64,000 bases of DNA from Escherichia coli (GCF_050920415.1 NZ_CP169309.1), one strand, 5' to 3'. Shown: positions 28,468-52,590, counted from the stretch's first letter. Numbers and translations are program-made. The notes: a model not told the origin generated them from the sequence alone.

Positions 28468-28926
28468 TTATTGACGACCAGAGTGACCAAAGCCGCCTTC
28501 ACCGCGGTCGGTGGCGTCGAAATCTTCCACCAGATTAAATTCAGCCTGTACTACCGGAACAAAAATCATTTGGGCGATACGTTCGCCAGGTTGAATGGTG
28601 AAGCTGTCCTGACCACGGTTCCACACAGAGATCATCAACTGGCCCTGATAGTCAGAATCGATCAATCCTACCAGGTTACCGAGCACGATACCGTGCTTAT
28701 GTCCCAATCCGGAACGCGGCAGCATCATGGCTGCCAGTGAAGGATCGGCAATATGAATCGCCAGCCCGGTTGGAACCAGAGTAGTGGCACCCGGTGCCAG
28801 TTCTACGGCGTCGTCGAGACAGGCGCGCAGGTCAAGTCCGGCAGAGCCAGAGGTGGCATAAGTCGGGAGTGGAAATTCCTTCCCAACGCGCGGGTCCAGA
28901 ATCTTAACGTCGATTTTTTTCATCAT
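28468..28926 (-). CDS. dut: dUTP diphosphatase
   Basis: 152 aa [15 protein letters not shown]...; dUTPase motifs. Confidence 0.95.
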
Positions 28927-30124
28927 AACGGGTCACGATCTCGTCGAGTAATAATTGGCCAAGGAGCTCTTTGCGCTCAAGCGGTAAGACTTTATCTCCG
29001 TCCTGCCAGAAAAGGTGTAATGCGTTGTTGTCGCTGTTAAATCCTTGAGTTGGCTGGGAAACATCGTTCGCGCAGATCAGATCAAGGTTTTTACGGATAC
29101 GTTTTTGCCGGGCGTATTCTTCCACATTATTTGTTTCGGCGGCAAATCCAACGACGTAGGGTCGATGGTCTTTTAGTGTGGCAACGCCTGCGACGATATC
29201 GGGGTTTTTAACCATTTTTATTGTTAATTCATCACCCTGCGTGGCCTGCTTTTTGATTTTCTCTGGGGCCACGGTAGCTGCGCGATAATCCGCCACGGCG
29301 GCGCAACCGATAAAAATATTTTGCTGCTGTACAGAAGCATTCACGGCGGCTTCCATTTCCAGCGCAGTCATTACATCAACACGTTTAACAAACGGTGGCG
29401 TCGGTAGTGAAACCGGACCTGATACCAGCGTGACGTTCGCGCCACGACGGGCAGCAGCGGCGGCGATAGCAAAACCCATCTTGCCGGAGCTGTGATTAGA
29501 GATATAACGCACCGGATCGAGCGGTTCACGCGTCGGGCCGGCGGTAATCATAATGTTCAGATGTTTCAGGTCGTTGACGGGCGAAAAATGCGCTACCGCC
29601 ATATCAACAATGGTTAACGGATCGAGCATTCGCCCAGGGCCGATATCACCACAAGCCTGACTGCCACTGTCTGGCCCCCAGATGAGCAAACCACGGGAAG
29701 CAAGCACCTCTAAATTATGCTGCGTGGCAGCGGCACGGTACATCTGCTGGTTCATGGCGGGGAGCACGGCTACAGGCGCAGGTGTAGCCAGGCAAATCGT
29801 CGATACCAGGTCATTCGCCATTCCGGCAGCAACACGGGCAATCAAATCTGCCGTGGCAGGGGCGAGAATCACTAAATCAGCCCATTTACCCAGCTCAATA
29901 TGGCCCATAGCGGCTTCGGCTGCCGGGTCAAGCAGACTGTCGGAAACGGGATACCCCGAAACTGCCTGCAAGCTAAGTGGGGTAATAAAGGCTTTTGCCG
30001 CTTCGGTCATGGCTACGCGGACGTCGGCCCCGCGATCGCGCAAACGACGCACCAGTTCAGGGGTTTTATAGGCAGCAATGCCGCCGCTAACGCCGAGAAC
30101 GATTTTTTTACCGGCCAGGCTCAT
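28904..30124 (-). CDS. coaBC: Bifunctional phosphopantothenoylcysteine decarboxylase / phosphopantothenate-cysteine ligase
   Basis: 406 aa from [20 protein letters not shown] (flavoprotein N-domain). Confidence 0.95.
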
Positions 30125-30295
30125 GATGATTTTTCCTGTTGGGTGACACCAGAAGTTGGCGATTTTATCACAATACTTTTGTTGTCGTGCCTTCACCTGA
30201 GAATCACTTTGCGAGGCGCTTTCCAGGATTGAAAACTGGCCGTCGATTTAACGGAACGGCTATGACAGGATGCGAGCACCACAAAGGAGGTGAAG

Positions 30296-30964
30296 GTGAA
30301 AAACAATGCACAGCTGTTGATGCCGCGCGAAAAAATGCTGAAGTTTGGTATTAGCGCCTTAACGGATGTCGAGCTGCTGGCGCTATTTCTGCGTACCGGA
30401 ACGCGCGGTAAAGATGTATTAACCCTGGCAAAAGAGATGCTGGAGAATTTCGGCTCTCTTTATGGCTTGTTAACCTCTGAATATGAACAGTTTAGTGGCG
30501 TTCATGGAATTGGCGTGGCGAAATTTGCCCAGTTAAAGGGGATTGCTGAACTGGCGCGGCGTTACTACAACGTGCGGATGCGTGAAGAAAGCCCTTTACT
30601 CAGCCCGGAGATGACGAGGGAATTTTTACAAAGCCAGCTCACGGGCGAGGAGCGGGAGATCTTTATGGTGATCTTTCTCGACTCCCAACACAGGGTTATA
30701 ACGCATAGCCGTCTTTTTTCCGGCACGCTAAACCATGTTGAAGTCCATCCTCGGGAAATTATCCGCGAAGCGATAAAAATAAACGCCTCGGCGCTGATCC
30801 TTGCACATAATCACCCTTCGGGTTGTGCTGAACCCAGTAAAGCGGATAAACTCATTACCGAACGGATAATAAAAAGTTGTCAGTTCATGGATTTACGCGT
30901 GCTCGACCATATCGTGATTGGGCGTGGAGAGTATGTTTCTTTTGCCGAACGCGGCTGGATTTAA
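30296..30964 (+). CDS. yicR: UPF0758 / RadC-like JAB-domain protein YicR
   Basis: GTG start at 30296 with AAGGAGG RBS; 222 aa; HNHPSG JAMM-like motif. Confidence 0.85.
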
Positions 30965-31159
30965 CCCGCTATGCGCGATCCTTCGGGATCTTTGTCTGTT
31001 CGGGACTTGAGCACATCGCTGAGTCAGCGTATACTACGCCACCTTTGAGAATCTCGGGTTTGGCATTTGGGCCTGGCAATCGAGAGTTCACATAGAACTG
31101 CGATGACCGGGCTGTAAAGCCTGACGAGGCGCCAATACCCCATACGAAGCTCGAGCTAA

Positions 31160-31417
<258 letters not shown>

Positions 31418-31434
31418 GTACTTAGAGGAAATAA

Positions 31435-31605
<171 letters not shown>

Positions 31606-31629
31606 TTCTCGCTTTGATGTAACGAAAAA

Positions 31630-31651
31630 CCTCGCTCCGGCGGGGTTTTTT
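31630..31651 (+). terminator. Rho-independent terminator after rpmBG
   Basis: CCTCGC-TCCG-GCGGGG hairpin (one G-T wobble) followed by TTTTTT. Confidence 0.6.
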
Positions 31652-31702
31652 GTTATCTGCTTGCCCCCATATTGACTGCATCTGTTCATTCCCGGAGATG
31701 CT

Positions 31703-32512
31703 ATGCCTGAATTACCCGAAGTTGAAACCAGCCGACGCGGCATCGAACCGCATCTCGTTGGTGCAACCATTCTTCATGCGGTGGTGCGCAACGGTCGCTT
31801 GCGCTGGCCGGTTTCAGAAGAGATCTACTGTTTAAGCGACCAACCAGTGCTTAGCGTGCAGCGCCGGGCTAAATATCTGCTGCTGGAGCTGCCTGAGGGC
31901 TGGATTATTATTCATCTGGGGATGTCTGGCAGCCTGCGCATCCTTTCAGAAGAACTTCCTCCCGAAAAGCATGACCATGTTGATTTGGTGATGAGCAACG
32001 GCAAAGTACTGCGCTATACCGATCCGCGCCGTTTTGGTGCCTGGCTGTGGACCAAAGAGCTGGAAGGGCATAATGTGCTGGCCCACCTTGGACCGGAGCC
32101 GCTTAGCGACGATTTCAACGGTGAGTACCTGCATCAGAAGTGCGCGAAGAAAAAAACGGCGATTAAACCGTGGCTGATGGATAACAAGCTGGTGGTAGGC
32201 GTAGGGAATATCTATGCCAGCGAATCTCTGTTTGCGGCGGGGATCCATCCGGATCGGCTGGCGTCATCACTGTCGCTGGCAGAGTGTGAATTGTTAGCTC
32301 GGGTGATTAAAGCGGTGTTGCTGCGTTCGATTGAGCAGGGCGGTACAACGCTGAAAGATTTTCTGCAAAGTGATGGTAAACCGGGCTATTTCGCTCAGGA
32401 ATTGCAGGTTTACGGGCGAAAAGGTGAGCCGTGTCGGGTGTGCGGTACGCCGATTGTGGCGACGAAACATGCACAACGGGCAACGTTTTATTGTCGGCAG
32501 TGCCAGAAGTAA
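31703..32512 (+). CDS. mutM: Formamidopyrimidine-DNA glycosylase
   Basis: 269 aa; N-terminal PELPEVE and C-terminal zinc finger CxxC...CxxC. Confidence 0.95.
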
Positions 32513-32521
32513 TTGATGCGC

Positions 32522-32543
32522 GCCGGATGGCATACCATCCGGC
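32522..32543. terminator. Palindromic hairpin between convergent mutM and coaD (likely bidirectional terminator)
   Basis: GCCGGATGG-CATA-CCATCCGGC perfect inverted repeat. Confidence 0.5.
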
Positions 32544-32550
32544 ATAAACG

Positions 32551-34315
<1,765 letters not shown>

Positions 34316-34661
34316 AGTAAATAGCTGACTTATGGATGTGCTGGGGATTCTATGTATTTAGCGGTGGCTTTACCATTACTTTTCCCGTTTTTGACTTAAA
34401 TAGCTTCAGTTTGGTCTGATCTGCCGCTACATCTTCATTTTTTTTGTATTTTTATGCGATTCATTGAAACTCAGCCCCATTTTCAACTCTACATAAGCCA
34501 TACCGACCTTATCGGTATGATATTTTTTATCTATTTGAATTTTATAATTAAAAAATATTTTGTGTATAAAAATCATTCGGGTCGGATTGCTGCGAAAGAA
34601 ATGATACACTAGCACGTCAAAGTAAGTGCGTTATCAGTATTCAGGTAGCTGTTGAGCCTGG

Positions 34662-34673
34662 GGCGGTAGCGTG
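34662..34673 (+). promoter_or_regulatory. ops element (RfaH-dependent antitermination site, within JUMPstart) in waaQ operon leader
   Basis: GGCGGTAGCGTG, about 85 bp upstream of waaQ. Confidence 0.7.
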
Positions 34674-34756
34674 CTTTTTTTCTGCTTAACTAACCAGACA
34701 ATCACACAAAAGAGTCGCTAGTGGAAAAGCCATTTCGAAAAATCCTGGTCATAAAG

Positions 34757-35791
34757 ATGCGATATCATGGAGATATGTTATTAACTACTCCTGTCATCAG
34801 TACGCTCAAGCAGAATTATCCTGATGCAAAAATCGATATGCTGCTTTATCAGGACACCATCCCTATTTTGTCTGAAAACCCGGAAATTAATGCGCTCTAC
34901 GGGATAAGCAATAAAGGTGCGGGAACATTCGATAAAATTAAAAATGTGCTTTCGTTGATAAAAACTCTGCGCGGAAATAATTATGACCTGGTCATTAATC
35001 TTACGGATCAGTGGATGGTGGCGCTGCTGGTACGTTGTTTACCTGCACGGATGAAAATATCGCAACTTTATGGTCATCGGCAGCATGGCATTTGGAAAAA
35101 AAGCTTCACTCACTTAGCGCCAATACACGGTACACATATTGTTGAGCGGAATTTATCGGTCCTTGAGCCATTAGGTATTACCGATTTCTACACTGACACA
35201 ACAATGAGTTACGCCGAAGATTGCTGGAAGAAGATGCGCCAGGAATTAGATGCCCTGGGCGTAAAAGATCATTATGTTGTCATCCAACCGACAGCGCGTC
35301 AGATATTTAAGTGTTGGGATAACGATAAATTTTCTAAGGTTATTGATGCGCTGCAACAGCGAGGATATCAGGTTGTGCTGACCTGTGGGCCTTCGGCAGA
35401 CGATCTCTCTTGTGTAGATGAGATTGCGCAAGGTTGCAAAACGAAACCCATTACTGGCCTTGCAGGTAAAACACGTTTTCCTGAACTGGGTGCGTTAATT
35501 GATCATGCAGTGCTTTTTATTGGCGTAGATTCTGCGCCGGGACATATTGCAGCGGCAGTGAAAACGCCAGTCATTAGTCTATTTGGTGCAACGGACCACG
35601 TATTCTGGCGCCCCTGGACCGAGAATATTATTCAATTCTGGGCGGGGAATTATCAGAAAATGCCGACCCGGCATGAACTTGACCGCAACAAAAAATATCT
35701 TTCTGTTATCCCAGCGGAAGATGTGATCGCCGCTACGGAAAAGCTGTTGCCAGAAGATGCCCCTTCAGCTGACAGGAATGCACAATTATGA
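34757..35791 (+). CDS. waaQ: LPS heptosyltransferase III
   Basis: Track ORF starts at an upstream GTG (34721); trimmed to ATG giving 344 aa as recalled for K-12; GT9 family. Confidence 0.85.
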   Translation: MRYHGDMLLTTPVISTLKQNYPDAKIDMLLYQDTIPILSENPEINALYGISNKGAGTFDKIKNVLSLIKTLRGNNYDLVINLTDQWMVALLVRCLPARMKISQLYGHRQHGIWKKSFTHLAPIHGTHIVERNLSVLEPLGITDFYTDTTMSYAEDCWKKMRQELDALGVKDHYVVIQPTARQIFKCWDNDKFSKVIDALQQRGYQVVLTCGPSADDLSCVDEIAQGCKTKPITGLAGKTRFPELGALIDHAVLFIGVDSAPGHIAAAVKTPVISLFGATDHVFWRPWTENIIQFWAGNYQKMPTRHELDRNKKYLSVIPAEDVIAATEKLLPEDAPSADRNAQL

Positions 35792-36912
35792 TCGTGGCGT
35801 TTTGTTTATATAAATATTTTCCATTTGGTGGGCTTCAACGTGACTTTATGCGTATTGCATCAACAGTTGCCGCTCGGGGCCACCATGTTCGGGTCTATAC
35901 GCAGTCGTGGGAAGGTGATTGCCCAAAAGCATTTGAGCTTATTCAGGTGCCAGTTAAGTCCCATACCAACCATGGACGCAATGCAGAGTATTATGCCTGG
36001 GTACAAAATCATCTCAAAGAGCATCCCGCAGATCGCGTTGTTGGGTTTAATAAGATGCCAGGTCTGGATGTTTATTTTGCTGCTGATGTTTGTTACGCCG
36101 AGAAAGTTGCGCAAGAAAAAGGTTTTTTATATCGTTTAACATCACGATATCGCCATTATGCCGCATTTGAGCGGGCGACTTTCGAGCAGGGTAAATCGAC
36201 GAAACTTATGATGCTGACCGATAAGCAAATCGCCGATTTCCAGAAGCATTATCAAACCGAACCTGAACGTTTTCAAATTCTTCCTCCCGGTATTTATCCG
36301 GACAGAAAATACAGCGAGCAAATCCCAAACAGTCGTGAAATTTATCGCCAGAAAAATGGCATAAAAGAGCAACAAAACTTATTACTGCAGGTTGGATCAG
36401 ATTTTGGCCGTAAAGGTGTGGATCGCTCAATTGAAGCTTTGGCATCGTTATCGGAATCATTACGTCACAATACGCTTTTATTTGTTGTTGGCCAGGATAA
36501 GCCGCGAAAATTTGAAGCGCTGGCAGAAAAGCTCGGCGTGCGGAGCAATGTGCATTTCTTCTCCGGTCGCAATGATGTGTCAGAATTAATGGCAGCCGCT
36601 GATTTATTACTGCATCCCGCTTATCAGGAAGCCGCGGGTATCGTTCTTCTTGAAGCAATCACTGCTGGATTACCTGTTTTAACAACTGCGGTATGTGGGT
36701 ACGCGCATTATATTGCGGATGCCAATTGTGGAACGGTTATCGCTGAACCATTCTCCCAGGAACAGTTAAATGAAGTTTTACGTAAAGCGTTAACTCAGTC
36801 TCCATTACGAATGGCCTGGGCGGAGAATGCTCGCCATTATGCCGATACTCAGGATTTGTATAGCCTGCCAGAGAAAGCCGCAGATATCATTACAGGTGGT
36901 TTAGATGGTTGA
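35788..36912 (+). CDS. waaG: LPS core glucosyltransferase I
   Basis: 374 aa GT4 glycosyltransferase. Confidence 0.93.
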
Positions 36913-37702
36913 ATTAAAAGAGCCGCTTGCCACACTTTGGCGTGGTAAAGATGCTTTTGAAGAAGTCAAAAAACTGAATGGCGAGGTCTTTCGTGAACTC
37001 GAGACGCGTCGCACATTACGCTTTGAACTGGCCGGGAAAAGCTATTTTCTTAAATGGCACAAAGGGACGACATTAAAAGAGATTGTAAAAAATCTACTCT
37101 CATTACGGATGCCCGTTTTGGGCGCAGACAGAGAGTGGCACGCTATTCATCGCCTGAGTGATGTTGGCGTTGATACAATGAAGGGCATTGGGTTTGGTGA
37201 AAAAGGGTTAAATCCATTAACTCGCACATCATTTATTATTACCGAAGATCTCACTCCCACGATTAGCCTTGAAGATTATTGTGCTGATTGGGCAGTCAAC
37301 CCGCCTGATATACGTGTAAAGCGTATGCTGATTACACGAGTGGCAACCATGGTGCGTAAAATGCACGCCGCAGGGATAAATCACCGCGACTGCTACATTT
37401 GCCACTTTTTGCTTCATTTACCATTTACTGGCCGGGAAGATGAATTAAAAATTTCGGTTATCGATCTGCATCGGGCACAGATACGTGCAAAAGTACCGCG
37501 CCGTTGGCGCGATAAAGACCTGATTGGTTTATATTTCTCATCAATGAATATTGGCCTGACGCAAAGAGACATATGGCGATTTATGAAGGTTTATTTTGGG
37601 ATGCCTTTGCGAAAAATATTGTCTCTTGAACAGAACTTATTGAACATGACAAGCGTTAAGGCCGAGCGTATTAAAGAGCGAACACAACGTAAAGGATTAT
37701 AA
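36905..37702 (+). CDS. waaP: LPS core heptose(I) kinase
   Basis: 265 aa kinase-like. Confidence 0.93.
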
Positions 37703-37738
37703 AAATATTTATCAGTATGTACTGGAACTAACTTCATT

Positions 37739-38674
37739 ATGACTATTTATTTTATAAACTGGGTTGCAGATTATGAATTAAAAATGATCCAGTACCTGAA
37801 AAAAAAGTACAAGATAAAAAACATAACGACACCAAAAAAATACAACTGGATTAATAAGAAAATCTCAAAAATAGGGATGGATAATGCATGGCTGGGGCGA
37901 TTATTCATCAAACATTACCTAAATGATATTAAAAAAGATGACATAATTATCTTTAATGACAGTGTTATTAATAAAGGTATCAATAAACAAATATTAAAAA
38001 ACATTAACTGTCATAAAGTTTTGCTTCTAAGAAATACTGTTAGCGAAGATTTTATTTTTGATAACGCCAATTATTTCGATGTTATATATGATTTTGAACA
38101 TAGATTTATAGGGAATGAAAAGACCAAAGCAATAGAACAATTTTTTCCTATAGGGATGGAGGAGATTACGAATTATAACTTATCTGACAAAAATAACAGT
38201 CAGCCAATATGTTTCTTTCTTGGTCGAGATAAAGGGCGTCTTCAAATAATTAATGAGTTAGCCGATAGACTAGCAACACTAGGATGTAAGTTAGATTTTA
38301 ATGTTGTCAAAGATAAGACATCATCACCGACTTCAAAGTATTTGATTGAAAAACAAATGCCTTATGAAGAGAATATTAGAAGAACATTAAATGCTAATAT
38401 AATTGTTGATATAACTAAAGAAAACCAATCTGGTTGGACTCTTCGTATACTTGAGGCGCTATTTTTCAATAAGAAATTAATCACCAATAATATAAATATA
38501 CTTACTTCAGAAATCTATAGTGAGTCTCGCTTTTTTATAATAGGTCATGATGATTGGGATAAGTTAGAGTATTTTATTAACTCATCTGTTAAACCAATGG
38601 ATTATGATAGTTTATATAAATTCAGTCCAGATAAAATGATGTCAACGATTGTTTCTGATTTTATAGATAAATAA
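37739..38674 (+). CDS. waaS: LPS core biosynthesis protein WaaS (K-12-type)
   Basis: 311 aa MTIYFINW...; AT-rich coding region; position as in K-12 waa cluster. Confidence 0.8.
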
Positions 38675-38717
38675 AACCGTTAAAACAGTGAGTTTTACTC
38701 AATTAATGAGATCTTCT

Positions 38718-39797
38718 ATGAAAATAGCGTTTATCGGCGAAGCCGTTTCTGGATTTGGCGGCATGGAAACAGTCATCCGTGATGTCATTAGCAACTTCAG
38801 GCAACAACATATCCAAAGTGAAATGTTTTTCTTTTGTCGTAATGACAAAATGGATAAGGGATGGCTAGAGGGTATACAGTACTCGTGTTCATTTTCCAAT
38901 ATTCGTTTAGGCTTTTTACGTCGGGCGAAACATATTTATGCTTTAAGCAAATGGCTGCGGGATTATCAACCGGATATCGTTATTTGTATTGATGTGATCT
39001 CCTGCCTGTTTGCCGCAAAAGCACGTAAAAAATCAGGAATTGATGTGCCAGTATTTTCATGGCCACATTTTTCTTTAGATCACAAAAAACATGCTGAATA
39101 TATCACCTGTGCCGACTATCATTTAGCAATCAGCTCTGGCATTAAACAGCAAATGATTAATCGGGGTGTAGCAGAATCGACGATAAATGTTATTTTTAAT
39201 CCCGTCGAAGCCAAAGATTCAGTCATTCCCGCGCCCGAGGAAGCCGAAACGGCAACGTTCATTTATGTTGGGCGTATGAAATTTGAAGGCCAGAAGAGAG
39301 TTAAAGACCTGCTTGATGGCTTATCACAAGCGCAAGGTAACTGGAAACTCCATGTATTGGGTGATGGTTCCGATTTTGAAAAATGCCAGGCTTATAGTAG
39401 AGAACTAAATATTGATGATCGAATTGTCTGGTATGGTTGGCAACAACATCCCTGGGAATTGGTCCAGCAAGATATTAAAAAAGTGAGTGCATTATTGCTC
39501 ACGTCATCTTTTGAAGGTTTCCCAATGACCCTACTTGAAGCCTTGTCATGGGGGATTCCTTGTATCAGTGCCGATTGTGTCTCCGGGCCTGCTGACATTA
39601 TTCAACCTGATGTCAATGGTCATCTGTATCAACCGGGAGATATTGCTGGTTTTGTAACTCTTCTAAATAAATATATAGCAGGTGAAATTCATATCGAACA
39701 TGAAAAAATTCCTGCGTCGATCGATAAGTTTTACCAATCGAAGTATTACGATAGATTACATAAGATAATTATTTCTGCTATTTCCCGGAGGAAATAA
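38718..39797 (+). CDS. waaB: LPS 1,6-galactosyltransferase
   Basis: Trimmed to MKIAFIGEAVSGFGGMETV, 359 aa; GT4. Confidence 0.85.
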   Translation: MKIAFIGEAVSGFGGMETVIRDVISNFRQQHIQSEMFFFCRNDKMDKGWLEGIQYSCSFSNIRLGFLRRAKHIYALSKWLRDYQPDIVICIDVISCLFAAKARKKSGIDVPVFSWPHFSLDHKKHAEYITCADYHLAISSGIKQQMINRGVAESTINVIFNPVEAKDSVIPAPEEAETATFIYVGRMKFEGQKRVKDLLDGLSQAQGNWKLHVLGDGSDFEKCQAYSRELNIDDRIVWYGWQQHPWELVQQDIKKVSALLLTSSFEGFPMTLLEALSWGIPCISADCVSGPADIIQPDVNGHLYQPGDIAGFVTLLNKYIAGEIHIEHEKIPASIDKFYQSKYYDRLHKIIISAISRRK

Positions 39798-40816
39798 TGC
39801 AGCAGGTGTTTTTCCAGGAAACTGAGTTTCTTAATTCAGTTATTGATTATAATCATAAAGTAGAAACAGAAAATCTTTGTCTGGACATCGCTTATGGAAC
39901 TGACAAAAATTTTCTATTTGGTTGCGGAATTTCGATTGCTTCAATATTAAAGTATAATGAAGGAAGTCGATTGTGTTTCCATATTTTTACTGATTATTTT
40001 GGTGATGATGATCGTAAGTATTTTGATGCCCTGGCGTTGCAGTATGAAACCAGAATTAAAATATATCTGATTAATGGTGATCGACTGCGCTCATTGCCTA
40101 GCACAAAGAATTGGACTCATGCAATATATTTTCGTTTTGTTATTGCAGATTACTTTATTAATAAGGCGTCTAAAGTCCTTTATCTGGATGCAGATATCAT
40201 TTGTCAGGGGAATATTGAGCCACTAATTAATTTCTCATTTCCTGGCGATAAAGTCGCAATGGTTGTTACAGAAGGGCAAGCTGACTGGTGGGAAAAACGC
40301 GCCCATTCGTTAGGTGTTGTGGGAATTGCTAAAGGTTACTTTAACTCGGGTTTTTTATTGATTAATACTGCCCAATGGGCGGCTCAGCAGGTTTCTGCCC
40401 GAGCCATTGCAATGCTAAATGAGCCAGAAATAATCAAAAAGATAACACATCCTGATCAGGATGTATTAAATATGTTGCTGGCAGATAAACTTATTTTTGC
40501 TGATATTAAATATAACACCCAGTTTAGCTTAAATTATCAACTTAAAGAAAGCTTTATAAACCCAGTAACCAACGATACTATTTTTATCCATTATATCGGA
40601 CCAACCAAGCCCTGGCATGATTGGGCCTGGGATTATCCTGTATCACAAGCCTTTATGGAGGCAAAAAATGCTTCGCCATGGAAGAATACGGCGTTGCTGA
40701 AACCGAACAATAGCAATCAATTAAGATATAGCGCAAAACATATGCTTAAAAAGCATAGATATCTAAAAGGATTTAGCAACTATCTTTTTTATTTTATTGA
40801 AAAGATAAAGCATTAA
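39797..40816 (+). CDS. waaO: LPS 1,3-glucosyltransferase (WaaO/WaaI), GT8
   Basis: 339 aa; GT8 family (DxD-containing) paralogue pair with the next gene. Confidence 0.85.
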   Translation: MQQVFFQETEFLNSVIDYNHKVETENLCLDIAYGTDKNFLFGCGISIASILKYNEGSRLCFHIFTDYFGDDDRKYFDALALQYETRIKIYLINGDRLRSLPSTKNWTHAIYFRFVIADYFINKASKVLYLDADIICQGNIEPLINFSFPGDKVAMVVTEGQADWWEKRAHSLGVVGIAKGYFNSGFLLINTAQWAAQQVSARAIAMLNEPEIIKKITHPDQDVLNMLLADKLIFADIKYNTQFSLNYQLKESFINPVTNDTIFIHYIGPTKPWHDWAWDYPVSQAFMEAKNASPWKNTALLKPNNSNQLRYSAKHMLKKHRYLKGFSNYLFYFIEKIKH

Positions 40817-40855
40817 AACTGGGAAACTATAAAGTAATGATATAAGGGTAGCATT

Positions 40856-41872
40856 GTGGACTCATTTCCTGCCATAGAGATAGATAAAGTTAAAGCCTGG
40901 GATTTTCGGCTTGCTAATATAAATACTTCTGAATGTTTAAATGTTGCCTATGGTGTCGATGCTAATTATCTTGATGGTGTAGGTATTTCCATCACATCAA
41001 TTGTCCTAAATAATCGACATATTAATCTTGATTTTTATATTATTGCTGATGTTTATAATGATGGTTTTTTTCAAAAAGTTGCAAAGCTTGCAGAGCAATA
41101 CCAATTAAGAATCACGTTATATAGAATTAACACTGATAAGCTCCAGTGCTTGCCTTGTACACAGGTCTGGTCAAGAGCAATGTACTTCCGTTTATTTGCA
41201 TTTCAATTATTGGGTTTAACGCTTGATCGTTTGCTTTATCTTGATGCAGATGTTGTTTGTAAAGGCGATATTAGCCAACTATTGCATCTGGATTTAAACG
41301 GAGCGGTTGCTGCTGTTGTTAAAGATGTTGAGCCAATGCAGGAAAAGGCGGTATCCAGGTTGTCTGATCCTGAATTACTTGGGCAGTACTTTAATTCTGG
41401 TGTCGTTTATTTAGATTTAAAAAAATGGGCTGACGCAAAACTAACAGAAAAAGCGTTGTCTATTCTTATGAGTAAAGATAATGTTTATAAATACCCTGAT
41501 CAGGATGTTATGAATGTCTTACTGAAAGGGATGACAATATTTTTGCCTCGTGAGTACAATACAATTTATACAATTAAAAGTGAATTAAAAGATAAAACAC
41601 ATCAAAACTATAAAAAGCTGATTACAGAAAGTACTCTTCTTATTCATTATACAGGTGCAACTAAACCGTGGCACAAATGGGCAATTTATCCATCGGTAAA
41701 ATACTATAAAATAGCTTTAGAAAATTCGCCATGGAAAGATGACTCGCCACGAGATGCAAAATCAATTATTGAATTTAAAAAAAGATATAAACATCTTTTA
41801 GTGCAGCGTCACTATATCTCAGGAATTATAGCAGGAGTCTGTTATCTTTGCCGAAAATATTACCGTAAATAA
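40856..41872 (+). CDS. waaJ: LPS 1,2-glucosyltransferase (WaaJ/WaaR), GT8
   Basis: 338 aa, GTG start; GT8. Confidence 0.85.
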   Translation: MDSFPAIEIDKVKAWDFRLANINTSECLNVAYGVDANYLDGVGISITSIVLNNRHINLDFYIIADVYNDGFFQKVAKLAEQYQLRITLYRINTDKLQCLPCTQVWSRAMYFRLFAFQLLGLTLDRLLYLDADVVCKGDISQLLHLDLNGAVAAVVKDVEPMQEKAVSRLSDPELLGQYFNSGVVYLDLKKWADAKLTEKALSILMSKDNVYKYPDQDVMNVLLKGMTIFLPREYNTIYTIKSELKDKTHQNYKKLITESTLLIHYTGATKPWHKWAIYPSVKYYKIALENSPWKDDSPRDAKSIIEFKKRYKHLLVQRHYISGIIAGVCYLCRKYYRK

Positions 41873-41889
41873 CATTTAACTGGTTTATT

Positions 41890-42588
41890 ATGATTCAGAA
41901 GAGCAAGATCAAAGACTTGGTTGTTTTTACCGATGAAAACAATTCAAAGTATCTCAATGTATTAAATGACTTTCTTTCTTATGATATTAATATCATCAAA
42001 GTTTTTCGTTCTATAGATGATACAAAAGTCATGCTTATTGATACCGATTACGGTAAATTGATACTTAAAGTTTTTTCTCCTAAAGTTAAACGCAACGAAC
42101 GTTTCTTTAAATCTCTTTTAAAGGGAGATTATTATGAACGCCTTTTTGAGCAAACTCAAAAAGTGCGTAACGAGGGGCTACATTCTCTCAATGACTTCTA
42201 TTTGTTAGCAGAACGGAAAACATTACGTTTTGTCCATACTTACATCATGCTTATCGAATATATCGATGGCGTTGAGTTGTGTGATATCCCCGATATTGAT
42301 GAAACGTTAAAAAATAAAATTCAACAATCAATCCGTTCATTGCACGAACATGGTATGGTATCTGGTGATCCTCACCGTGGTAATTTTATTATTGAAAATG
42401 GTGAAGTACGCATTATTGATCTTTCAGGAAAACGGGCATCTTCACAACGTAAAGCGAAAGATCGTATTGATCTAGAACGACATTATGGTATTAAGAATGA
42501 GATTAAAGATCTCGGTTATTATCTTTTAGTTTATCGTAAAAAAATACGTAATCTTATGCGCCGCTTGAAAGGAAAGCCAGCACGATAA
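41890..42588 (+). CDS. waaY: LPS core heptose(II) kinase
   Basis: 232 aa kinase-like. Confidence 0.85.
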   Translation: MIQKSKIKDLVVFTDENNSKYLNVLNDFLSYDINIIKVFRSIDDTKVMLIDTDYGKLILKVFSPKVKRNERFFKSLLKGDYYERLFEQTQKVRNEGLHSLNDFYLLAERKTLRFVHTYIMLIEYIDGVELCDIPDIDETLKNKIQQSIRSLHEHGMVSGDPHRGNFIIENGEVRIIDLSGKRASSQRKAKDRIDLERHYGIKNEIKDLGYYLLVYRKKIRNLMRRLKGKPAR

Positions 42589-42659
42589 AGTAAAAGTCTT
42601 ACATTTAAACGTCTTCGTCAGAACATTTCTATGCGGAGTTATTATTTCACAGGTTTATC

Positions 42660-43511
42660 ATGAAGAATATTAGATACATTGACAAAAAAGATGTTGAAAA
42701 CCTGATAGAAAGTAAAACGTCTGATGATGTTATTATTTTTCTTTCCGGCCCCACATCGCAAAAAACACCATTGTCAGTTCTGCAGACAAGGGATGTTATT
42801 GCTGTCAATGGTTCCGCGCAATATCTACTAAGTCATAATATTATTCCCTATATTTATGTACTTACTGATGTTCGCTTCTTGCATCAGCGTCGTGATGATT
42901 TTTATAAATTTAGCCAGAGAAGTCGTTATACCATAGTAAACGTCGACGTTTATGAACACGCTTCCAAAGAAGATAAACTTTATATCCTCCAAAACTGCCT
43001 CGTATTACGGTCCTTTTACCGCCGAGAAAAAGGCGGTTTGATAAAGAAGATAAAATTTAATATATTAAGTCAGATTCATAAAGAACTGCTGATCTCTGTA
43101 CCGTTGTCTAAAAAAGGTCGTCTGGTCGGATTTAGCAAGGACATCAGTCTTGGTTATTGCTCATGCCATACTATTGCCTTTGCTGCAATTCAAATAGCAT
43201 ATACACTTAAGTATGCGCGGATTATTTGTTCTGGTCTTGATTTAACTGGTAGTTGTTCTCGTTTCTATGACGAAAGTAACAATCCTATGCCCTCGGAATT
43301 GAGTAGGGATTTGTATAAAATCTTGCCATTTTTCCGTTTTATGCGTGATAATGTAGAAGATATTAATATTTATAATTTGTCAGATGATACGGCTATTTCT
43401 TACGATGTAATTCCATTTATTAAACCTCTCGATATCAGTACAGAAGAGTCAAAGGATAAGATAAGAAAAAAAATGGAATATAAAGCTTCAACTGATTCTT
43501 ATGCTAATTAA
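42660..43511 (+). CDS. waaZ: LPS core biosynthesis protein WaaZ
   Basis: 283 aa; K-12 and R2-type core clusters carry waaZ at this position. Confidence 0.8.
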   Translation: MKNIRYIDKKDVENLIESKTSDDVIIFLSGPTSQKTPLSVLQTRDVIAVNGSAQYLLSHNIIPYIYVLTDVRFLHQRRDDFYKFSQRSRYTIVNVDVYEHASKEDKLYILQNCLVLRSFYRREKGGLIKKIKFNILSQIHKELLISVPLSKKGRLVGFSKDISLGYCSCHTIAFAAIQIAYTLKYARIICSGLDLTGSCSRFYDESNNPMPSELSRDLYKILPFFRFMRDNVEDINIYNLSDDTAISYDVIPFIKPLDISTEESKDKIRKKMEYKASTDSYAN

Positions 43512-43543
43512 TCATCCTGAAACTAAAATTATATGGTATAAAA

Positions 43544-44617
43544 ATGCGTTTAGGAACTTTTCACAAAAAGAAAAGATTTTATATAAACAAAATCAAGATT
43601 AATTTTCTTTCTTTTTTATTTCGTAAAAAAATCAATAACCAAGTTACAGATCTCGCACAAGTTAAATCATGCCTTATCATTCATGATAATAATAAACTCG
43701 GTGATTTAATTGTATTAAGTTCGATTTATCGTGAGCTTTATAGTAAAGGAGTTAAAATAACCATTCTCACAAATAGAAAGGGAGGGGAGTTTCTCTCTAA
43801 CAATAAAAATATATTTGGATTCTGTATTAAAGAATCAACAGGTTTCCTTAAAATGCTTACTCTATGTAAGCATTTGCGGGATTTACAGTTCGATATTGTA
43901 TTAGACCCCTTTGAAACTATGCCCTCATTTAAGCATAGCTTAATATTATCAAGTTTAAAAGATTCTTACATTCTGGGTTTTGATCAATGGTATAAGCGTT
44001 ACTATTCATTTTACCATCCCCATGATGAATGTTTAAAAGAACATATGAGTACACGAGCAATAGAAATACTGAAGCATATTTATGGTGAGGGTGAATTTTC
44101 CACCGACTACGACTTGCATTTGCCTGTAGATGTTGAAAATAAAATAATAGATTTTATTGGGAATACAAGGATAGTCATCATTAACCCATTAGGTGCAAAA
44201 AAAATATGCCGACTTACGTTTGAGCAAATAAAAGTTATATATCAAGAAGTGAAAGTACAATTTGAGAATTATCGAGTGATATTTACTGGGTTGCCGCAAG
44301 ATTTATTGACAATACCAATACCTGAAATCGAAACACTACCATTTGATGAGTTTATTTATACCGTTGCGTTGACCAGGTATAGTGATTTTGTCATTTCTGT
44401 TGATACAGCTCTTGTTCATATCGCTGCGGCTTATCATAAACCAACGCTTGCATTTTATCCTAATTCACGCACTCCGGAATATCCCTCACATTTAATTTGG
44501 TCCCCAAATAATCATCGGTCTATACAAATAGTATCCCCAACATTTACGGTAAAAGATATCGATCCTGAAACTTTAACTGATTCAGTAAAGAGATTAAGTT
44601 GTATAGATAAGAAGTGA
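43544..44617 (+). CDS. waaU: LPS heptosyltransferase IV (WaaU; named rfaK in older K-12 annotation)
   Basis: 357 aa GT9 heptosyltransferase-like; last gene of the waaQ operon. Confidence 0.8.
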   Translation: MRLGTFHKKKRFYINKIKINFLSFLFRKKINNQVTDLAQVKSCLIIHDNNKLGDLIVLSSIYRELYSKGVKITILTNRKGGEFLSNNKNIFGFCIKESTGFLKMLTLCKHLRDLQFDIVLDPFETMPSFKHSLILSSLKDSYILGFDQWYKRYYSFYHPHDECLKEHMSTRAIEILKHIYGEGEFSTDYDLHLPVDVENKIIDFIGNTRIVIINPLGAKKICRLTFEQIKVIYQEVKVQFENYRVIFTGLPQDLLTIPIPEIETLPFDEFIYTVALTRYSDFVISVDTALVHIAAAYHKPTLAFYPNSRTPEYPSHLIWSPNNHRSIQIVSPTFTVKDIDPETLTDSVKRLSCIDKK

Positions 44618-44634
44618 GTTTTAACTCACTTCTT
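44609..44634. terminator. Perfect palindrome spanning the waaU stop, between convergent waaU and waaL (bidirectional terminator)
   Basis: AAGAAGTGAGTT-TTAA-CTCACTTCTT. Confidence 0.55.
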
Positions 44635-44642
44635 AAACTTGT

Positions 44643-45908
44643 CTATTCTTGATTAATAGTATTGTTGCGATTATTAATAACGAGTAAGAGGACTATAGCT
44701 GATATAACGATAATTGGAATGCTGCGTGCCCATATGATTACATCACTGAGTCCAATCCCCACTATGCCAAGCGTTAATATCAACAAACCCAATGCGCGTT
44801 TTTTATATGCTGTATAAAATAGTGAATAATAGAGGAAAAGGGTAGAAAAAATCCCCATCAGACCTTTTAGTGACGCTGCTTCAATTATCTCATTATGTAG
44901 GTGTACGTTAGAAAACTCCAATGCCCCTCTTAGCCTGTTGTGTTCTGCAACTAACAAATTCATACTTTCAGCGCGCGACTCTGCAGATCTAAATGAAAAA
45001 GGTGACTTTTTGAATATATCCAAACCAATTTCGTACATTGCCAGCCTTGCACCTAAGGAAGTCACGCTATTAGCATTGGTATAACTGTTTAAATCATTTA
45101 ATGCTTCATTATAGCGATTCTGTATTGGTTTATTAAATATAATTACAATACTCGCCAATATAGCAATTAGAAGAACAATAGCGGAAGTAAATTTCTTAGG
45201 TGATTTATTATAATAAGCTATTAATGTAACAGCACAAATTCCAGGAAACAGGAGTAGTGTTGCTCTGGTTTGTGTTAGTGCCAGAACATAAAGTACCGCG
45301 CAACTATTTAATAAAAATAAAAAAGGATGGTTCTTCTTAGTATAAAGAATCGCAACACCACTAACTATCCCTATTAGCATTGTTGAATATGCCGCTCCTG
45401 TTGCCGTTCCTACACCAAAAGAAATACGGTCATATTCATGAATGCTATTAATATACATTGCATATCCAGCAATTATAAATGACAGAGAATATAAAATGTA
45501 TAATACACTCTCTTTTTTATTTTTTAGCTGACTAGTTAGTGCTAAAAAAACAATAAAAGAACCAAATATAAATATTTTGGCAGTATTTAAATAACTATGG
45601 TAAGTAGCACGAAATGGCGAGTTATCTACTTTAAATATAGAATACCAAATTAAATCAAGCAAGCCTATAAAAAATATAGAAAGGGGCAGAATAATATTTT
45701 TTATATTGTAATTTCCTTGTCTGCCACGTAAAATTAGTGATAATAGGCAAACTATAGCAGTGATATTATATATCTTTATGCTGAAAGTGTTATCGACGAA
45801 TGCAATTATCAATGAAAGAAAACATAATATATAAGTTATTACCTCTAAAATCATAGATGATTTCAGAGTGTAAGGTTTCCATGAATGAAGTTTAATGAAG
45901 GTTGGCAT
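44643..45908 (-). CDS. waaL: O-antigen ligase
   Basis: 421 aa polytopic membrane protein; very AT-rich; Wzy_C-like. Confidence 0.9.
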   Translation of the reverse strand: MPTFIKLHSWKPYTLKSSMILEVITYILCFLSLIIAFVDNTFSIKIYNITAIVCLLSLILRGRQGNYNIKNIILPLSIFFIGLLDLIWYSIFKVDNSPFRATYHSYLNTAKIFIFGSFIVFLALTSQLKNKKESVLYILYSLSFIIAGYAMYINSIHEYDRISFGVGTATGAAYSTMLIGIVSGVAILYTKKNHPFLFLLNSCAVLYVLALTQTRATLLLFPGICAVTLIAYYNKSPKKFTSAIVLLIAILASIVIIFNKPIQNRYNEALNDLNSYTNANSVTSLGARLAMYEIGLDIFKKSPFSFRSAESRAESMNLLVAEHNRLRGALEFSNVHLHNEIIEAASLKGLMGIFSTLFLYYSLFYTAYKKRALGLLILTLGIVGIGLSDVIIWARSIPIIVISAIVLLLVINNRNNTINQE

Positions 45909-45917
45909 GTTTTACCT

Positions 45918-46877
45918 TTATAATGATGATAGTTTTTCCAAAACTGCTTGACCGTTGAGATTAATTAAACTTTTTCCCGGTGCCATGCAAACTACCTGAT
46001 TCTTCCCATACCCACCAATTAATCCCGGATCGGTAGGTCCATAAACCGTGATATTGGGTCTATCCAGTGCCGCCGTTAAATGGCTTAACCCCGTATCCAC
46101 CGACACCACAAATTTAGCGCCCGCCAGCACACGAGCAACGCCTTCCAGACTCATCTTCGGCAATACTTCAACATAAGCAAATCCTTCCGCCAGTCGTTTC
46201 GCCCGTTCTTCCTCATGCGGCGCGCCCCACGGAAGTTTAATCCGTATTCCTGAATCAGCCAGTAAACCAATCAATTCTCGCCAGTGTTCTTCCGGCCAGT
46301 GTTTATCATCACGGGTCGTCGCATGAAGAAATACGGCATATTCGCCAGCATCTGTAGGCAGGTTCGTCAGGAAATGCTGTGCGATAGCATAATCGCCCTG
46401 GGTTTGCGGTTTGCTATAGCCCAGACTTTTGGCAAACAGTTCGCGGGTGCGTTCTACGGCGTGCTGCTGTTTTGCAATATGATGCTTACGATTGTAAAAC
46501 AGGCTGGCTAAGGGTTCGCGAGCGGTTTGCCAGTCCATTCCATGCTTTACGCCATGCGCCAGACGCGTCACCAGCGCCGCGCTTTTTACCAGCCCCTGAG
46601 CGTCGATAACTGCGTCATAGTTCTCTGCTTGTAGCGCTTCACGAAACGCTTTGCGTTCAGCTTTTATGGGGGCCGAGAACCAGGCTTTACGCCAGCGACG
46701 TATTGCCACAGGAATAACTCGCTCAACGGCAGCGTGCCAGGAAGGAATCTGTGCGAACCCTTCTTCCACCACCCAGTCAAACTTAATCCCTGGGATTGCC
46801 TGCTGGGCATCAGTGAGTGCGGGCAGCGTATGGAGAACATCGCCCATCGACGATGTTTTAACGATCAGAACCCGCAT
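45918..46877 (-). CDS. waaC: LPS heptosyltransferase I
   Basis: 319 aa GT9. Confidence 0.95.
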   Translation of the reverse strand: MRVLIVKTSSMGDVLHTLPALTDAQQAIPGIKFDWVVEEGFAQIPSWHAAVERVIPVAIRRWRKAWFSAPIKAERKAFREALQAENYDAVIDAQGLVKSAALVTRLAHGVKHGMDWQTAREPLASLFYNRKHHIAKQQHAVERTRELFAKSLGYSKPQTQGDYAIAQHFLTNLPTDAGEYAVFLHATTRDDKHWPEEHWRELIGLLADSGIRIKLPWGAPHEEERAKRLAEGFAYVEVLPKMSLEGVARVLAGAKFVVSVDTGLSHLTAALDRPNITVYGPTDPGLIGGYGKNQVVCMAPGKSLINLNGQAVLEKLSSL

Positions 46878-48869: not shown

Positions 48870-49082
48870 AACTGTAACCTTCGAATTATGGAGTCAGAGA
48901 CAATCTCAGACACGAATGCTTCTATCATATCACTACACGGCGTTCGCTTCAGCCATTCGCCAAAAGTGAGATTGATGGACGTTATTTATCCTGAATTTTG
49001 CAGAAGTGTTAACGCGTCATCTCGTCGCAACCTATAAGTTTGGGTAATATGTGCTGGAATTTGCCCTGTCTGGAGAATCGCA

Positions 49083-50292: not shown

Positions 50293-51318
50293 ATGAAAGC
50301 GTTATCCAAACTGAAAGCGGAAGAGGGCATCTGGATGACCGACGTTCCTGAACCGGAACTCGGACATAACGATCTGCTGATTAAAATCCGTAAAACAGCC
50401 ATCTGCGGGACTGACGTTCACATCTATAACTGGGATGAGTGGTCGCAAAAAACCATCCCAGTACCGATGGTTGTAGGCCATGAATATGTCGGTGAGGTGG
50501 TTGGCATCGGTCAGGAAGTGAAAGGCTTCAAGATCGGCGATCGCGTTTCTGGCGAAGGCCATATCACTTGTGGTCATTGCCGCAACTGTCGTGGCGGTCG
50601 TACACATCTGTGCCGCAACACGATCGGCGTCGGCGTTAACCGTCCGGGCTGCTTCGCCGAGTATCTGGTGATTCCGGCGTTCAACGCTTTCAAAATCCCC
50701 GACAATATCTCCGATGATCTGGCTTCCATTTTTGATCCCTTCGGTAACGCCGTGCATACCGCGCTGTCGTTTGATCTGGTGGGCGAGGATGTGCTGGTCT
50801 CTGGTGCAGGCCCGATAGGTATTATGGCTGCGGCGGTGGCGAAACACGTCGGTGCACGCAACGTGGTGATCACGGATGTTAATGAATACCGCCTTGAGCT
50901 GGCGCGTAAAATGGGTATCACCCGTGCGGTTAACGTCGCCAAAGAAAATCTCAATGACGTGATGGCGGAGTTAGGCATGACCGAAGGCTTTGATGTCGGT
51001 CTGGAAATGTCCGGTGCGCCGCCAGCGTTTCGTACCATGCTCGACACCATGAACCACGGCGGTCGCATTGCGATGCTGGGTATTCCGCCGTCTGATATGT
51101 CTATCGACTGGACCAAAGTGATCTTTAAAGGCTTGTTCATTAAAGGTATTTACGGTCGTGAGATGTTTGAAACCTGGTACAAGATGGCGGCGCTGATTCA
51201 GTCTGGCCTCGATCTCTCGCCGATCATTACCCATCGTTTCTCTATCGATGATTTCCAGAAGGGCTTTGACGCTATGCGTTCGGGCCAGTCCGGGAAAGTT
51301 ATTCTGAGCTGGGATTAA
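50293..51318 (+). CDS. tdh: L-threonine 3-dehydrogenase
   Basis: 341 aa zinc-dependent MDR dehydrogenase. Confidence 0.95.
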
Positions 51319-51555: not shown

Positions 51556-52590
51556 ATGATGAACAGCACCAATAAACTCAGTGTTATTATCCCGTTATAT
51601 AATGCGGGAGATGATTTCCGTACTTGCATGGAATCTTTAATCGCGCAAACCTGGACTGCTCTGGAAATCATTATTATTAACGATGGTTCAACGGATAATT
51701 CTGTTGAAATAGCAAAGCATTACGCGGAAAACTATCCGCACGTTCGTTTGCTGCATCAGGCGAATGCCGGCGCATCGGTGGCGCGTAATCGTGGGATCGA
51801 GGCGGCGACGGGTAAATATGTCGCTTTTGTCGATGCTGACGATGAGGTCTATCCCACTATGTACGAAACGCTGATGACCATGGCGTTAGAGGACGACCTC
51901 GACGTGGCGCAGTGCAACGCTGACTGGTGTTTTCGTGAAACGGGAGAAACCTGGCAATCCATCCCCAGCGATCGCCTTCGCTCAACCGGCGTATTAACCG
52001 GCCCTGATTGGTTGCGGATGGGGCTTTCTTCCCGCCGTTGGACTCATGTTGTCTGGATGGGCATTTATCGTCGTGATGTCATTGTTAAAAATAACATTAA
52101 ATTTATTGCCGGATTACATCATCAGGATATTGTCTGGACAACAGAATTTATGTTTAACGCGCAACGCGTGCGATATACCGAGCAATCGTTATATAAATAT
52201 TATTTGCATAATACGGCAGTGAGCCGATTGAATAGACAGGGAAATAAAAACCTTAATTATCAACGCCACTATATTAAGATTACCCGACTGTTGGAAAAGT
52301 TAAATCGCGATTACGCAGACAGAATAGTGATTTACCCGGAATTTCATCAACAAATAACTTACGAAGCATTACGTGTTTGCCATGCGGTACGTAAAGAGCC
52401 AGATATTATTACCCGCCAACGGATGATTGCTGAGATATTTACTTCCGGTATGTATAAGCGCCTGATTTCCAATGTACGCAGCATAAAGGTGGGTTATCAG
52501 GCGTTACTGTGGTCTTTCCGCTTATGGCAATGGCGCGACAAAACACGGTCGCACCATCGCATTACGCGTAGCGCCTTTAATTTGCGCTAG
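51556..52590 (+). CDS. waaH: GT2-family glycosyltransferase WaaH (YibD)
   Basis: 344 aa; GT2 motifs ([13 protein letters not shown]). Confidence 0.85.

Follow-up and report, generated by a model that had tools for sequence, protein, structure and literature searches.

We found that a 64,000-nucleotide stretch of Escherichia coli DNA, hereafter the window, very probably carries at 34316-45908 an intact chromosomal waa (rfa) locus of the K-12 core type, made up of a predicted RfaH-dependent waaQ operon and a convergent waaL gene. The locus is a within-type mosaic, not K-12's own allele, and its E. coli background is a rare one; the E. coli strain MFDS1022581 matches the window at 100% identity. 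The K-12-type gene cluster is textbook biology and is already annotated in public genomes. Core type affects typing schemes, the receptors of phages and colicins, and O-antigen ligation; the strain may be entered as having the K-12 core type, an assignment of little significance beyond bookkeeping.

Gene content and core type of the locus

A preliminary description of this DNA had given the gene order as waaQ-G-P-S-B-O-J-Y-Z-U with a convergent waaL, and the open reading frames at 34316-45908 agree with it. All 11 are intact, with no internal stops; the ten operon genes are on the + strand and waaL is on the - strand, and the set sits between waaA and waaC, as expected for the K-12 core type. 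RefSeq annotation of the identical DNA (NZ_CP169399.1) names them rfaQ, rfaG, rfaP, rfaS, waaB, waaO, rfaJ, rfaY, waaZ, waaU and waaL. The protein lengths claimed for WaaG to WaaL (374, 265, 311, 359, 339, 338, 232, 283, 357 and 421 aa) were reproduced, but the 344 aa claimed for WaaQ results only from a start at ATG 34757; PGAP places the start at GTG 34721, giving 356 aa. Because the NCBIfam RfaQ model (NF007742) aligned to the 356-aa protein from residue 1, and because the 12 additional N-terminal codons are conserved at the protein level across core types, GTG 34721 appears the more likely start.

The curated NCBIfam cut-offs were passed for RfaQ, RfaP, WaaS/CpsH, WaaB, WaaO, RfaY and WaaZ. 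The first three genes encode a predicted heptosyltransferase III (waaQ or rfaQ, 34721-35791; equivalog NF007742, 679 bits against a cut-off of 467), a GT4 glucosyltransferase I (waaG, 35788-36912; Pfam Glycos_transf_1 and Glyco_transf_4, and the PGAP name) and a heptose(I) kinase (waaP, 36905-37702; equivalog NF011703, 466.8 bits, cut-off 170). They are followed by waaS (37739-38674; GC 0.279), whose product belongs to the WaaS/CpsH family of glycosyltransferases (NF053598, 184.8 bits, cut-off 60) and gave no match in a Pfam search; in K-12, WaaS is a rhamnosyltransferase (PMC6358824). Next come waaB (38718-39797), a predicted LPS 1,6-galactosyltransferase (equivalog NF007396, 607.6 bits, cut-off 385), and waaO (rfaI, 39797-40816), a GT8 alpha-1,3 hexosyltransferase predicted to add the second outer-core hexose (NF011718, 578.6 bits, cut-off 461). 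The name of the WaaO model, '3-alpha-galactosyltransferase', is that of the Salmonella enzyme and is no guide to sugar specificity. The GTG-initiated waaJ (waaR, 40856-41872) encodes a GT8 alpha-1,2 glucosyltransferase (Pfam Glyco_transf_8 and Glyco_transf_8C), waaY (41890-42588) a heptose(II) kinase (NF007684, 395.6 bits, cut-off 248), and waaZ (42660-43511) a Kdo III transferase (NF007333, 540.8 bits, cut-off 473; TIGR04437). The last operon gene, waaU (43544-44617), is GT9 heptosyltransferase-like (Pfam Glyco_transf_9, PF01075, 36.9 bits, cut-off 22), and waaL (44643-45908, - strand) encodes a predicted O-antigen ligase (Pfam Wzy_C, 51.3 bits, cut-off 31.7). PGAP labels this WaaL 'O-antigen ligase family protein' and the K-12 protein 'O-antigen ligase'.

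The core type had been given as K-12, and comparison with reference loci for five types (K-12 C600, R1 UPEC 536, R2 strain 158, R3 F3398 and R4 N96) upheld this: WaaS, WaaU and WaaL are orthologous to the K-12 type only. Matches to WaaS and WaaU were confined to K-12-type loci (93-100% aa identity; 94-100% for WaaU), and searches for both in the R1-R4 reference loci returned nothing, or only a GT9 cross-hit at 12% coverage. Against K-12-type ligases WaaL shows 92-95% identity, a figure that falls to 30-33% with those of R1 and R4; the R2 and R3 ligases gave no match. The assignment had been made contingent on where WaaS, WaaZ and the last operon gene (WaaU) would find their best matches, and all three match K-12-type alleles best, WaaZ at 99.6-100% in isolate R32_14_1F and 91% in K-12, versus 89% in R2. 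For the outer-core proteins, identity to 536, F3398 and N96 does not exceed 59%.

Core typing by PCR, which had been proposed as a check, was carried out in silico with published primers (PMC13293308), and each reference locus gave its expected product. The window yielded the K-12 product only, of 1443 bp (the published waaY-to-waaU amplicon is 1442 bp), and no R1-R4 primer pair matched. Primer K12-R matches exactly at 42448-42470; K12-F matches at 43870-43890 with one mismatch, which belongs to the window's allele lineage. The window has no waaK as last gene, no wabA after waaP and no R2-type waaL; for R1, R3 and R4, defined by waaT/W/V, waaD, waaX and their typing amplicons, there were no typing-primer matches in the window.

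One part of the earlier reasoning has to be amended. Of the genes held to be diagnostic, waaS and the GT9 last gene (waaU) stand, but waaZ does not, since it occurs in R2 as well, as do waaB, waaO, waaJ and waaY. The discriminators of the K-12 type are waaS, waaU and waaL, and waaZ alone is not diagnostic. Of 5426 complete E. coli genomes, 1030 have waaS, equal to the number with a full K-12-type locus, and 1031-1032 have waaU-waaL; waaY-waaZ is found in about 1530 genomes, versus about 1030 with waaS or waaU-waaL. As a K-12 marker waaZ is thus unsuitable, whereas waaS and the waaU-waaL pair follow the type.

Operon leader and predicted working of the locus

The divergent waaA-waaQ intergenic region, with the waaQ operon leader on the + strand (34316-34720), was read directly and has a GC of 0.368. 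An ops element had been reported in this leader, and GGCGGTAGCGTG is indeed present as a single exact 12-mer in the window (34662-34673, + strand), with 47 nt between it and the GTG of waaQ downstream, where it would serve as an RfaH recruitment site. The motif GGCGGTAG(nnTG) lies on the non-template strand upstream of waaQ, and ops is invariant across six aligned loci of the K-12, R2 and R4 types. A full-length, 39-nt JUMPStart match (34635-34673, + strand; Rfam RF01707, 55.2 bits, gathering score 35, E = 1.4e-10) has the ops element as its 3' end. In the leader alignment the middle part is variable and the 3' part is conserved in all core types; the K-12 leader is nearly identical to that of the window from about 34560 onwards.

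A second ops-like site at 62722, with one mismatch and antisense within lldP, was taken as chance, as was the only other Rfam match, STnc290 at 44606-44657 (27 bits; gathering score 60). Scanning the locus for consensus sequences gave promoter-like sites at background level (53 sites, 47.1 expected) and terminator-like sites likewise (9 sites, 8.0 expected).

The functions of WaaZ, WaaS, RfaH, ops and RirA have been described, and the waaQ operon of K-12 is known to be RfaH-dependent (PMC6358824); by analogy, we infer the same dependence for the operon of the window. Transcription would start in the waaA-waaQ intergenic region, and RNA polymerase, pausing at the ops site of the JUMPStart leader, would recruit RfaH, which would suppress termination and polarity along the long, AT-rich operon. 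WaaG, WaaB, WaaO and WaaJ would then extend the heptose region by a Glc-(Gal)-Glc-Glc outer core; WaaQ would contribute HepIII, and WaaP and WaaY would phosphorylate HepI and HepII. WaaU would supply the HepIV cap, the O-antigen acceptor, and WaaL would join the O-antigen, while WaaZ and WaaS would give rise to alternative Kdo III/rhamnose glycoforms. In the core of the K-12 type, HepIV is carried by GlcIII and Gal by GlcI. The final core structure and the sugar specificities given here are predictions from orthology with the characterised K-12 enzymes.

Allelic origin and base composition

Nucleotide identity to K-12 is 95.0% over the whole locus and 96-97% for the flanking DNA, which rules out a K-12 laboratory strain as the source of the window. 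At the protein level the identities to K-12 are 98.6% (WaaQ), 99.7% (WaaG), 97.4% (WaaP), 94.5% (WaaS), 95.8% (WaaB), 98.2% (WaaO), 98.2% (WaaJ), 93.1% (WaaY), 91.2% (WaaZ) and 93.6% (WaaU). The most divergent gene is waaY, at 86.4% nucleotide identity, with waaZ at 91.3% and waaL at 92.9%; WaaL differs from its 419-aa K-12 counterpart by 27 substitutions and a C-terminal QE extension, and like WaaY, WaaZ and WaaU it falls in the 91-94% range of protein identity to K-12.

The sub-segment waaY-waaZ-waaU (41900-44500) has another allelic origin than waaQ-waaJ: it is 99-100% identical to R32_14_1F and 85-95% identical to K-12. From 34500 to 41900 the identities to K-12 span 93-99%, mostly 95-99%, and those to R32_14_1F span 86-95%, mostly 90-93%. 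WaaY, for its part, has 99.1% aa identity to R32_14_1F and 98.3% to R2 strain 158. These identities indicate that the window is a recombinant between the R32_14_1F allele lineage and a K-12-like lineage. Among complete genomes, 18 carry the waaU-waaL of the window at 95-97% identity and the other 1014 at 90-95%; some 80-93 public contigs encode exactly these proteins, without exception in a waaF-waaC-waaL-waaU-waaZ context.

There is a small chance that the mosaic allele, with its 421-aa WaaL and with WaaZ, WaaU and WaaY at 91-94% identity to K-12, gives a subtly different core or ligation specificity. More doubtful still is a K-12-like gene set whose divergent WaaZ/WaaU/WaaL lineage, with its 421-aa ligase, is functionally unlike K-12's in how the core is built or used, whether through ligation specificity, glycoform balance or some other property. 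The 27 substitutions and 2-aa extension of WaaL, the 93.6% and 91.2% identities of WaaU and WaaZ, and the separate allele group formed with only the 18 genomes noted above speak for such a divergence; however, every protein is full length and passed the same family models, identities of 91-95% likewise separate K-12 from an NR3838-like group (about 88% nucleotide identity over the whole locus), and the published typing scheme counts K-12 as a single type (PMC13293308).

An exchange of about 12 kb is evident relative to N96, the nearest complete-genome relative, which types as R4 both by annotation and by in silico PCR and is the only genome at least 99% identical over recG-ligB; phylotyping markers are absent from the window. 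N96 and the window differ at 8 positions across 15849-34404 (18.5 kb); differences are dense between 34405 and about 46400, after which identity is about 99%. The mismatch map, sliding identity and the N96 annotation together delimit an exchanged block of ~12 kb (34405-46520), with a left breakpoint at 34364-34405 and a right breakpoint at about 46390-46520, inside waaC. Because N96 carries an R4 cassette between near-identical flanks, a recent switch of core type by homologous replacement of about 12 kb is well supported, and the mere 8 flank differences in 18.5 kb suggest that the switch of the whole cassette was very recent. The same comparison gives good support for regarding MFDS1022581 (K-12 core) and N96 (R4 core) as a natural near-isogenic pair, in which the effect of core type could be compared in a nearly constant genetic background.

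The segment from waaS to waaL had been described as conspicuously AT-rich and hypervariable, and both properties were confirmed. Its GC is 0.337 (37739-45908) and changes sharply at waaP/waaS and waaL/waaC, the remainder of the window standing at 0.513; waaQGP has a GC of 0.443, and GC3 is 0.25-0.35 in the outer-core genes versus 0.48-0.63 in the flanking genes. Matches to waaQGP were found in 5424 of 5426 complete E. coli genomes, and to the remainder in only 1030. The equivalent outer-core block has a GC of 0.33-0.35 in all of K-12, R1, R2, R3 and R4; AT-richness is common to the five core types and no K-12 hallmark.

The drop in GC with its sharp boundaries, and the evident exchange relative to N96, might be read as a recent, strain-specific import of the AT-rich block from a low-GC foreign donor, which is highly improbable. 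Since 0.33-0.35 GC is shared by all five types, low GC is an old property of the locus, and the 95-100% identity of the exchanged DNA to alleles of other E. coli genomes points to within-species donors and to homologous recombination through conserved sequence on either side, namely waaC and the intergenic region between waaA and waaQ.

Scarcely credible is an R2-type locus or K-12/R2 hybrid, for example with waaK for waaU or an R2-like waaL: such hybrids exist (PMC13293308), WaaY is 98.3% identical to that of R2 strain 158, and waaY and 5' waaZ are nearer to that strain (95-97% nt) than to K-12 (85-89% nt), but gene content rejects the hybrid, the last operon gene being GT9 waaU and not GT4 waaK, WaaL having no detectable similarity to the R2 ligase, waaS standing where R2 has the GT8 gene wabA, no R2 primer pair matching (R2-F absent, R2-R with 3 mismatches), and the waaY-Z-U allele recurring at 99-100% identity in R32_14_1F, itself with a full K-12-type gene set.

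Comparison with known waa loci

The K-12-type assignment and the mosaic structure can be set against the known loci. K-12 (C600/MG1655) has the same gene order and orientation, with 10 of the 11 protein lengths identical (WaaL 419 versus 421 aa), the same ops/JUMPStart leader and a similar outer-core block (GC 0.332 versus 0.337 in the window); K-12 additionally has htrL/yibB downstream of rfaD, a gene that the window lacks. The goat isolate R32_14_1F has the full K-12-type set, a 421-aa WaaL and a waaY-waaZ-waaU segment 99-100% identical to that of the window, but differs in waaQ-waaJ (mostly about 90-93%, range 86-95%) and in waaL (about 92-97%). About half of the genomes of K-12 type fall in the NR3838-like group, which shares waaS-B-O-J-Y-Z-U and a 421-aa waaL product at 92-96% aa identity, whereas its waaQGP belongs to another allele class, common to R1, R3 and R4 (WaaQ 73% aa; 66-81% nt).

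The R2 locus (strain 158) has waaQ-G-P and waaB-O-J-Y-Z in common with the window, at 87-98% aa identity, and its waaL is convergent too. It differs in having the GT8 gene wabA in the waaS slot (PMC13293308), the GT4 GlcNAc transferase gene waaK for waaU, and an unrelated WaaL; it is typed by a 610-bp waaZ-waaK amplicon. The R1, R3 and R4 loci (UPEC 536, F3398 and N96) occupy the same waaA-waaC site and likewise have conserved waaQGP, an ops leader and an AT-rich outer-core block, but they lack waaS, waaB, waaZ and waaU. Their WaaO, WaaJ and WaaY are only 41-59% identical to those of the window, and their WaaL is 30-33% identical or undetectable; in R1 and R4 the waaL gene runs in the same direction as the operon.

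Gene content and core type of the waa locus

The plus strand of the window carries ten co-oriented open reading frames between 34721 and 44617, with a convergent frame at 44643-45908, and all 11 are intact. The 11.6-kb query matched the chromosome of E. coli MFDS1022581 (NZ_CP169399.1), from animal-source food in South Korea, at 100%. On that chromosome RefSeq names the genes rfaQ, rfaG, rfaP, rfaS, waaB, waaO, rfaJ, rfaY, waaZ, waaU and waaL; the neighbors are waaA-coaD-mutM at one end and rfaC-rfaF-rfaD at the opposite end. Gene order and orientation are the same as in K-12 strain C600. RfaQ, RfaP, WaaS/CpsH, WaaB, WaaO, RfaY and WaaZ passed curated NCBIfam cut-offs, and Pfam placed WaaJ in GT8, WaaU in GT9, WaaL in Wzy_C and WaaG in GT4; WaaS had no family match in the Pfam search.

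The protein lengths in the preliminary description are correct for every gene except waaQ, for which 344 amino acids assumes a start at ATG 34757. PGAP places the start at GTG 34721, giving 356 amino acids. Because the alignment to the NCBIfam RfaQ model starts at residue 1 of this form, and because the twelve additional codons are kept as protein, with conservative replacements, in the loci of other core types, the longer form is the better call.

To assign the core type, we used five reference loci, one per type, each verified with published typing primers (PMC13293308): C600 (K-12; amplicon of 1442 bp), UPEC 536 (R1; 842 bp), strain 158 (R2; 610 bp), F3398 (R3; 1021 bp) and N96 (R4; 380 bp). 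The window gave a K-12 product only, of 1443 bp. Primer K12-R matches exactly at 42448-42470, and K12-F has one mismatch at 43870-43890 (primer G17 opposite A), which is also found in R32_14_1F, another K-12-type locus; in a further such locus, NR3838, both K-12 primers have one mismatch each. Typing by exact matches only could overlook the lineages of the window, R32_14_1F and NR3838. In the protein comparison across the five types, orthologues of WaaS and WaaU were confined to K-12-type loci (94-100% amino acid identity). WaaL was 92-95% identical to K-12-type ligases and 30-33% to those of R1/R4, and had no detectable similarity to the R2 or R3 ligases of the reference loci. WaaB and WaaZ are common to the window and R2, and WaaO, WaaJ and WaaY showed 87-98% identity to R2 but only 41-59% to R1/R3/R4.

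These comparisons uphold the K-12 assignment of the preliminary description: WaaS and WaaU have orthologues in K-12-type loci alone, the only amplicon is that of K-12, and at the protein level neither WaaS, WaaZ nor the product of the last operon gene favored a different type, and the K-12 call stands. Both the observation and its interpretation hold, with one correction: waaZ is not by itself diagnostic of the K-12 type, since R2 shares it. The waaY-waaZ pair is present in about 1530 of 5426 complete genomes, and waaS or waaU-waaL in only 1030-1032; the surplus carriers are R2-type loci, which have the GT8 gene wabA at the waaS position and waaK where the window has waaU.

The AT-richness attributed to the outer-core genes is likewise real. 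GC content is 0.337 from waaS to waaL (37739-45908), 0.443 in waaQGP and 0.513 in the remaining window, and GC3 is 0.25-0.35 in outer-core genes versus 0.48-0.63 in neighboring genes. It is not a K-12-specific feature, as the waaP-to-waaC block has a GC content of 0.33-0.35 in all of the verified K-12, R1, R2, R3 and R4 loci; AT-richness of the outer-core block is generic to the five core types.

Leader of the waaQ operon

The ops element (RfaH recruitment site) described in the operon leader was confirmed. The stretch GGCGGTAG belongs to this element, and the full ops 12-mer, GGCGGTAGCGTG, has a single exact occurrence, at 34662-34673 on the plus strand, 47 nt upstream of the waaQ GTG. The Rfam JUMPStart model is matched over its full length at 34635-34673 (55.2 bits; gathering score 35; E = 1.4e-10), with the 12-mer at the 3' end of the match, and the 12-mer is unchanged in all six K-12-, R2- and R4-type loci that were aligned. 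In K-12, this ops/JUMPStart leader makes the waaQ operon RfaH-dependent, and the 5' UTR of the operon is also the source of RirA, an RfaH-titrating sRNA (review PMC6358824). From the near-identity of the leaders, we infer that both RfaH dependence and RirA may extend to the window strain.

At 34499-34528 (plus strand), 5' of JUMPStart, the intergenic region between waaA and waaQ contains a terminator-like hairpin with a trailing T-run (CATACCGACCTTATCGGTATG ATATTTTTTA). This feature lies in the variable central part of the region and is not conserved in R2/R4 leaders. Another ops-like 12-mer, GGCGGTAGCCTG, with one mismatch, is located at 62722-62733 (plus strand), antisense inside lldP; as 0.16 sites are expected per window at one mismatch or fewer, it is probably a chance occurrence.

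Allelic mosaic and exchange of the type-determining block

Locus-wide identity to K-12 is 95.0%, with nucleotide identities of 97-98% for waaQ, G, O and J, 86.4% for waaY, 91.3% for waaZ, 94.3% for waaU and 92.9% for waaL. In a sliding-window comparison, K-12 was nearest from 34.4 to 41.9 kb (93-99%, mostly 95-99%), the R32_14_1F allele matched at 99-100% from 41.9 to 44.5 kb, waaY was nearer to R2 strain 158 than to K-12, and waaL was 92-97% identical to every sampled sequence. The WaaL of the window carries 27 substitutions compared with its K-12 counterpart and is extended by QE at the C terminus; NR3838 and R32_14_1F likewise have the 421-amino-acid form. The locus is a mosaic, distinct from the K-12 allele. 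The allele is not rare across public data overall: exact WaaL, WaaU, WaaZ, WaaY and WaaS each occur in about 80-93 public contigs, in constant gene context, and 18 complete genomes carry waaU-waaL at 95-97% identity. The inner-core waaQGP genes fall into two allele classes decoupled from outer-core type. One is common to K-12, R2 and the window; NR3838-like K-12-type loci have the class of R1/R3/R4, with WaaQ 73% identical to that of the window in amino acids and a nucleotide identity of 66-81% (NR3838 locus, 4414-7383, versus window 34721-37702).

The background lineage is rare among complete genomes: N96, from a Tibetan pig, alone carries recG-ligB at 99% identity or more. Across 15849-34404, only 8 positions distinguish N96 from the window. 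Dense divergence begins at 34405, in the waaA-waaQ intergenic region, N96 has nothing that aligns with the outer core of the window, and identity returns to about 99% from approximately 46.4-46.5 kb, within waaC. The N96 locus, which types as R4, contains waaO, waaT, waaY, a GT8 gene, a GT25 gene and a co-oriented waaL. Near-identical flanks around a divergent K-12/R4 block imply that a segment of about 12 kb with the entire type-determining block was swapped by homologous recombination after MFDS1022581 and N96 split; from two genomes, either direction is possible.

Outside the locus, about 37 mismatches to N96 cluster densely at 15349-15838, at the gltS-recG junction inside an otherwise near-identical 24-kb stretch, and probably represent a separate small recombination patch; comparable identity dips occur at 50500-51000 and 54500-55000. 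The htrL/yibB gene is missing between rfaD and kbl (48870-49082), as in N96, R32_14_1F, NR3838, 158 and 536, and is present at this site in C600 and F3398. An intact waaH (UDP-glucuronate:LPS(HepIII) glycosyltransferase; 51556-52590, 344 amino acids) provides an additional inner-core modification gene outside the waa cluster. Elsewhere in the window, an IS2 (IS3-family) transposase at 548-1776 interrupts a CesD/SycD/LcrH-type type III secretion chaperone gene (TPR protein; region 202-2035), annotated as pseudogene fragments at 202-462 and 1787-2035, and an internal rhuM fragment (6278-6439) adjoins tRNA-Sec (selC, 6518-6612), a site that looks like the remnant of a former selC-integrated island.

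This textbook system was already annotated in RefSeq, and our additions to it are modest: the waaZ correction, the generic AT-richness, the start codon of waaQ, the mosaic nature of the allele and the R4/K-12 swap seen against N96. An earlier case of recombination at waa, the K-12/R2 hybrid loci, was ascribed to transposition or horizontal gene transfer (PMC13293308).
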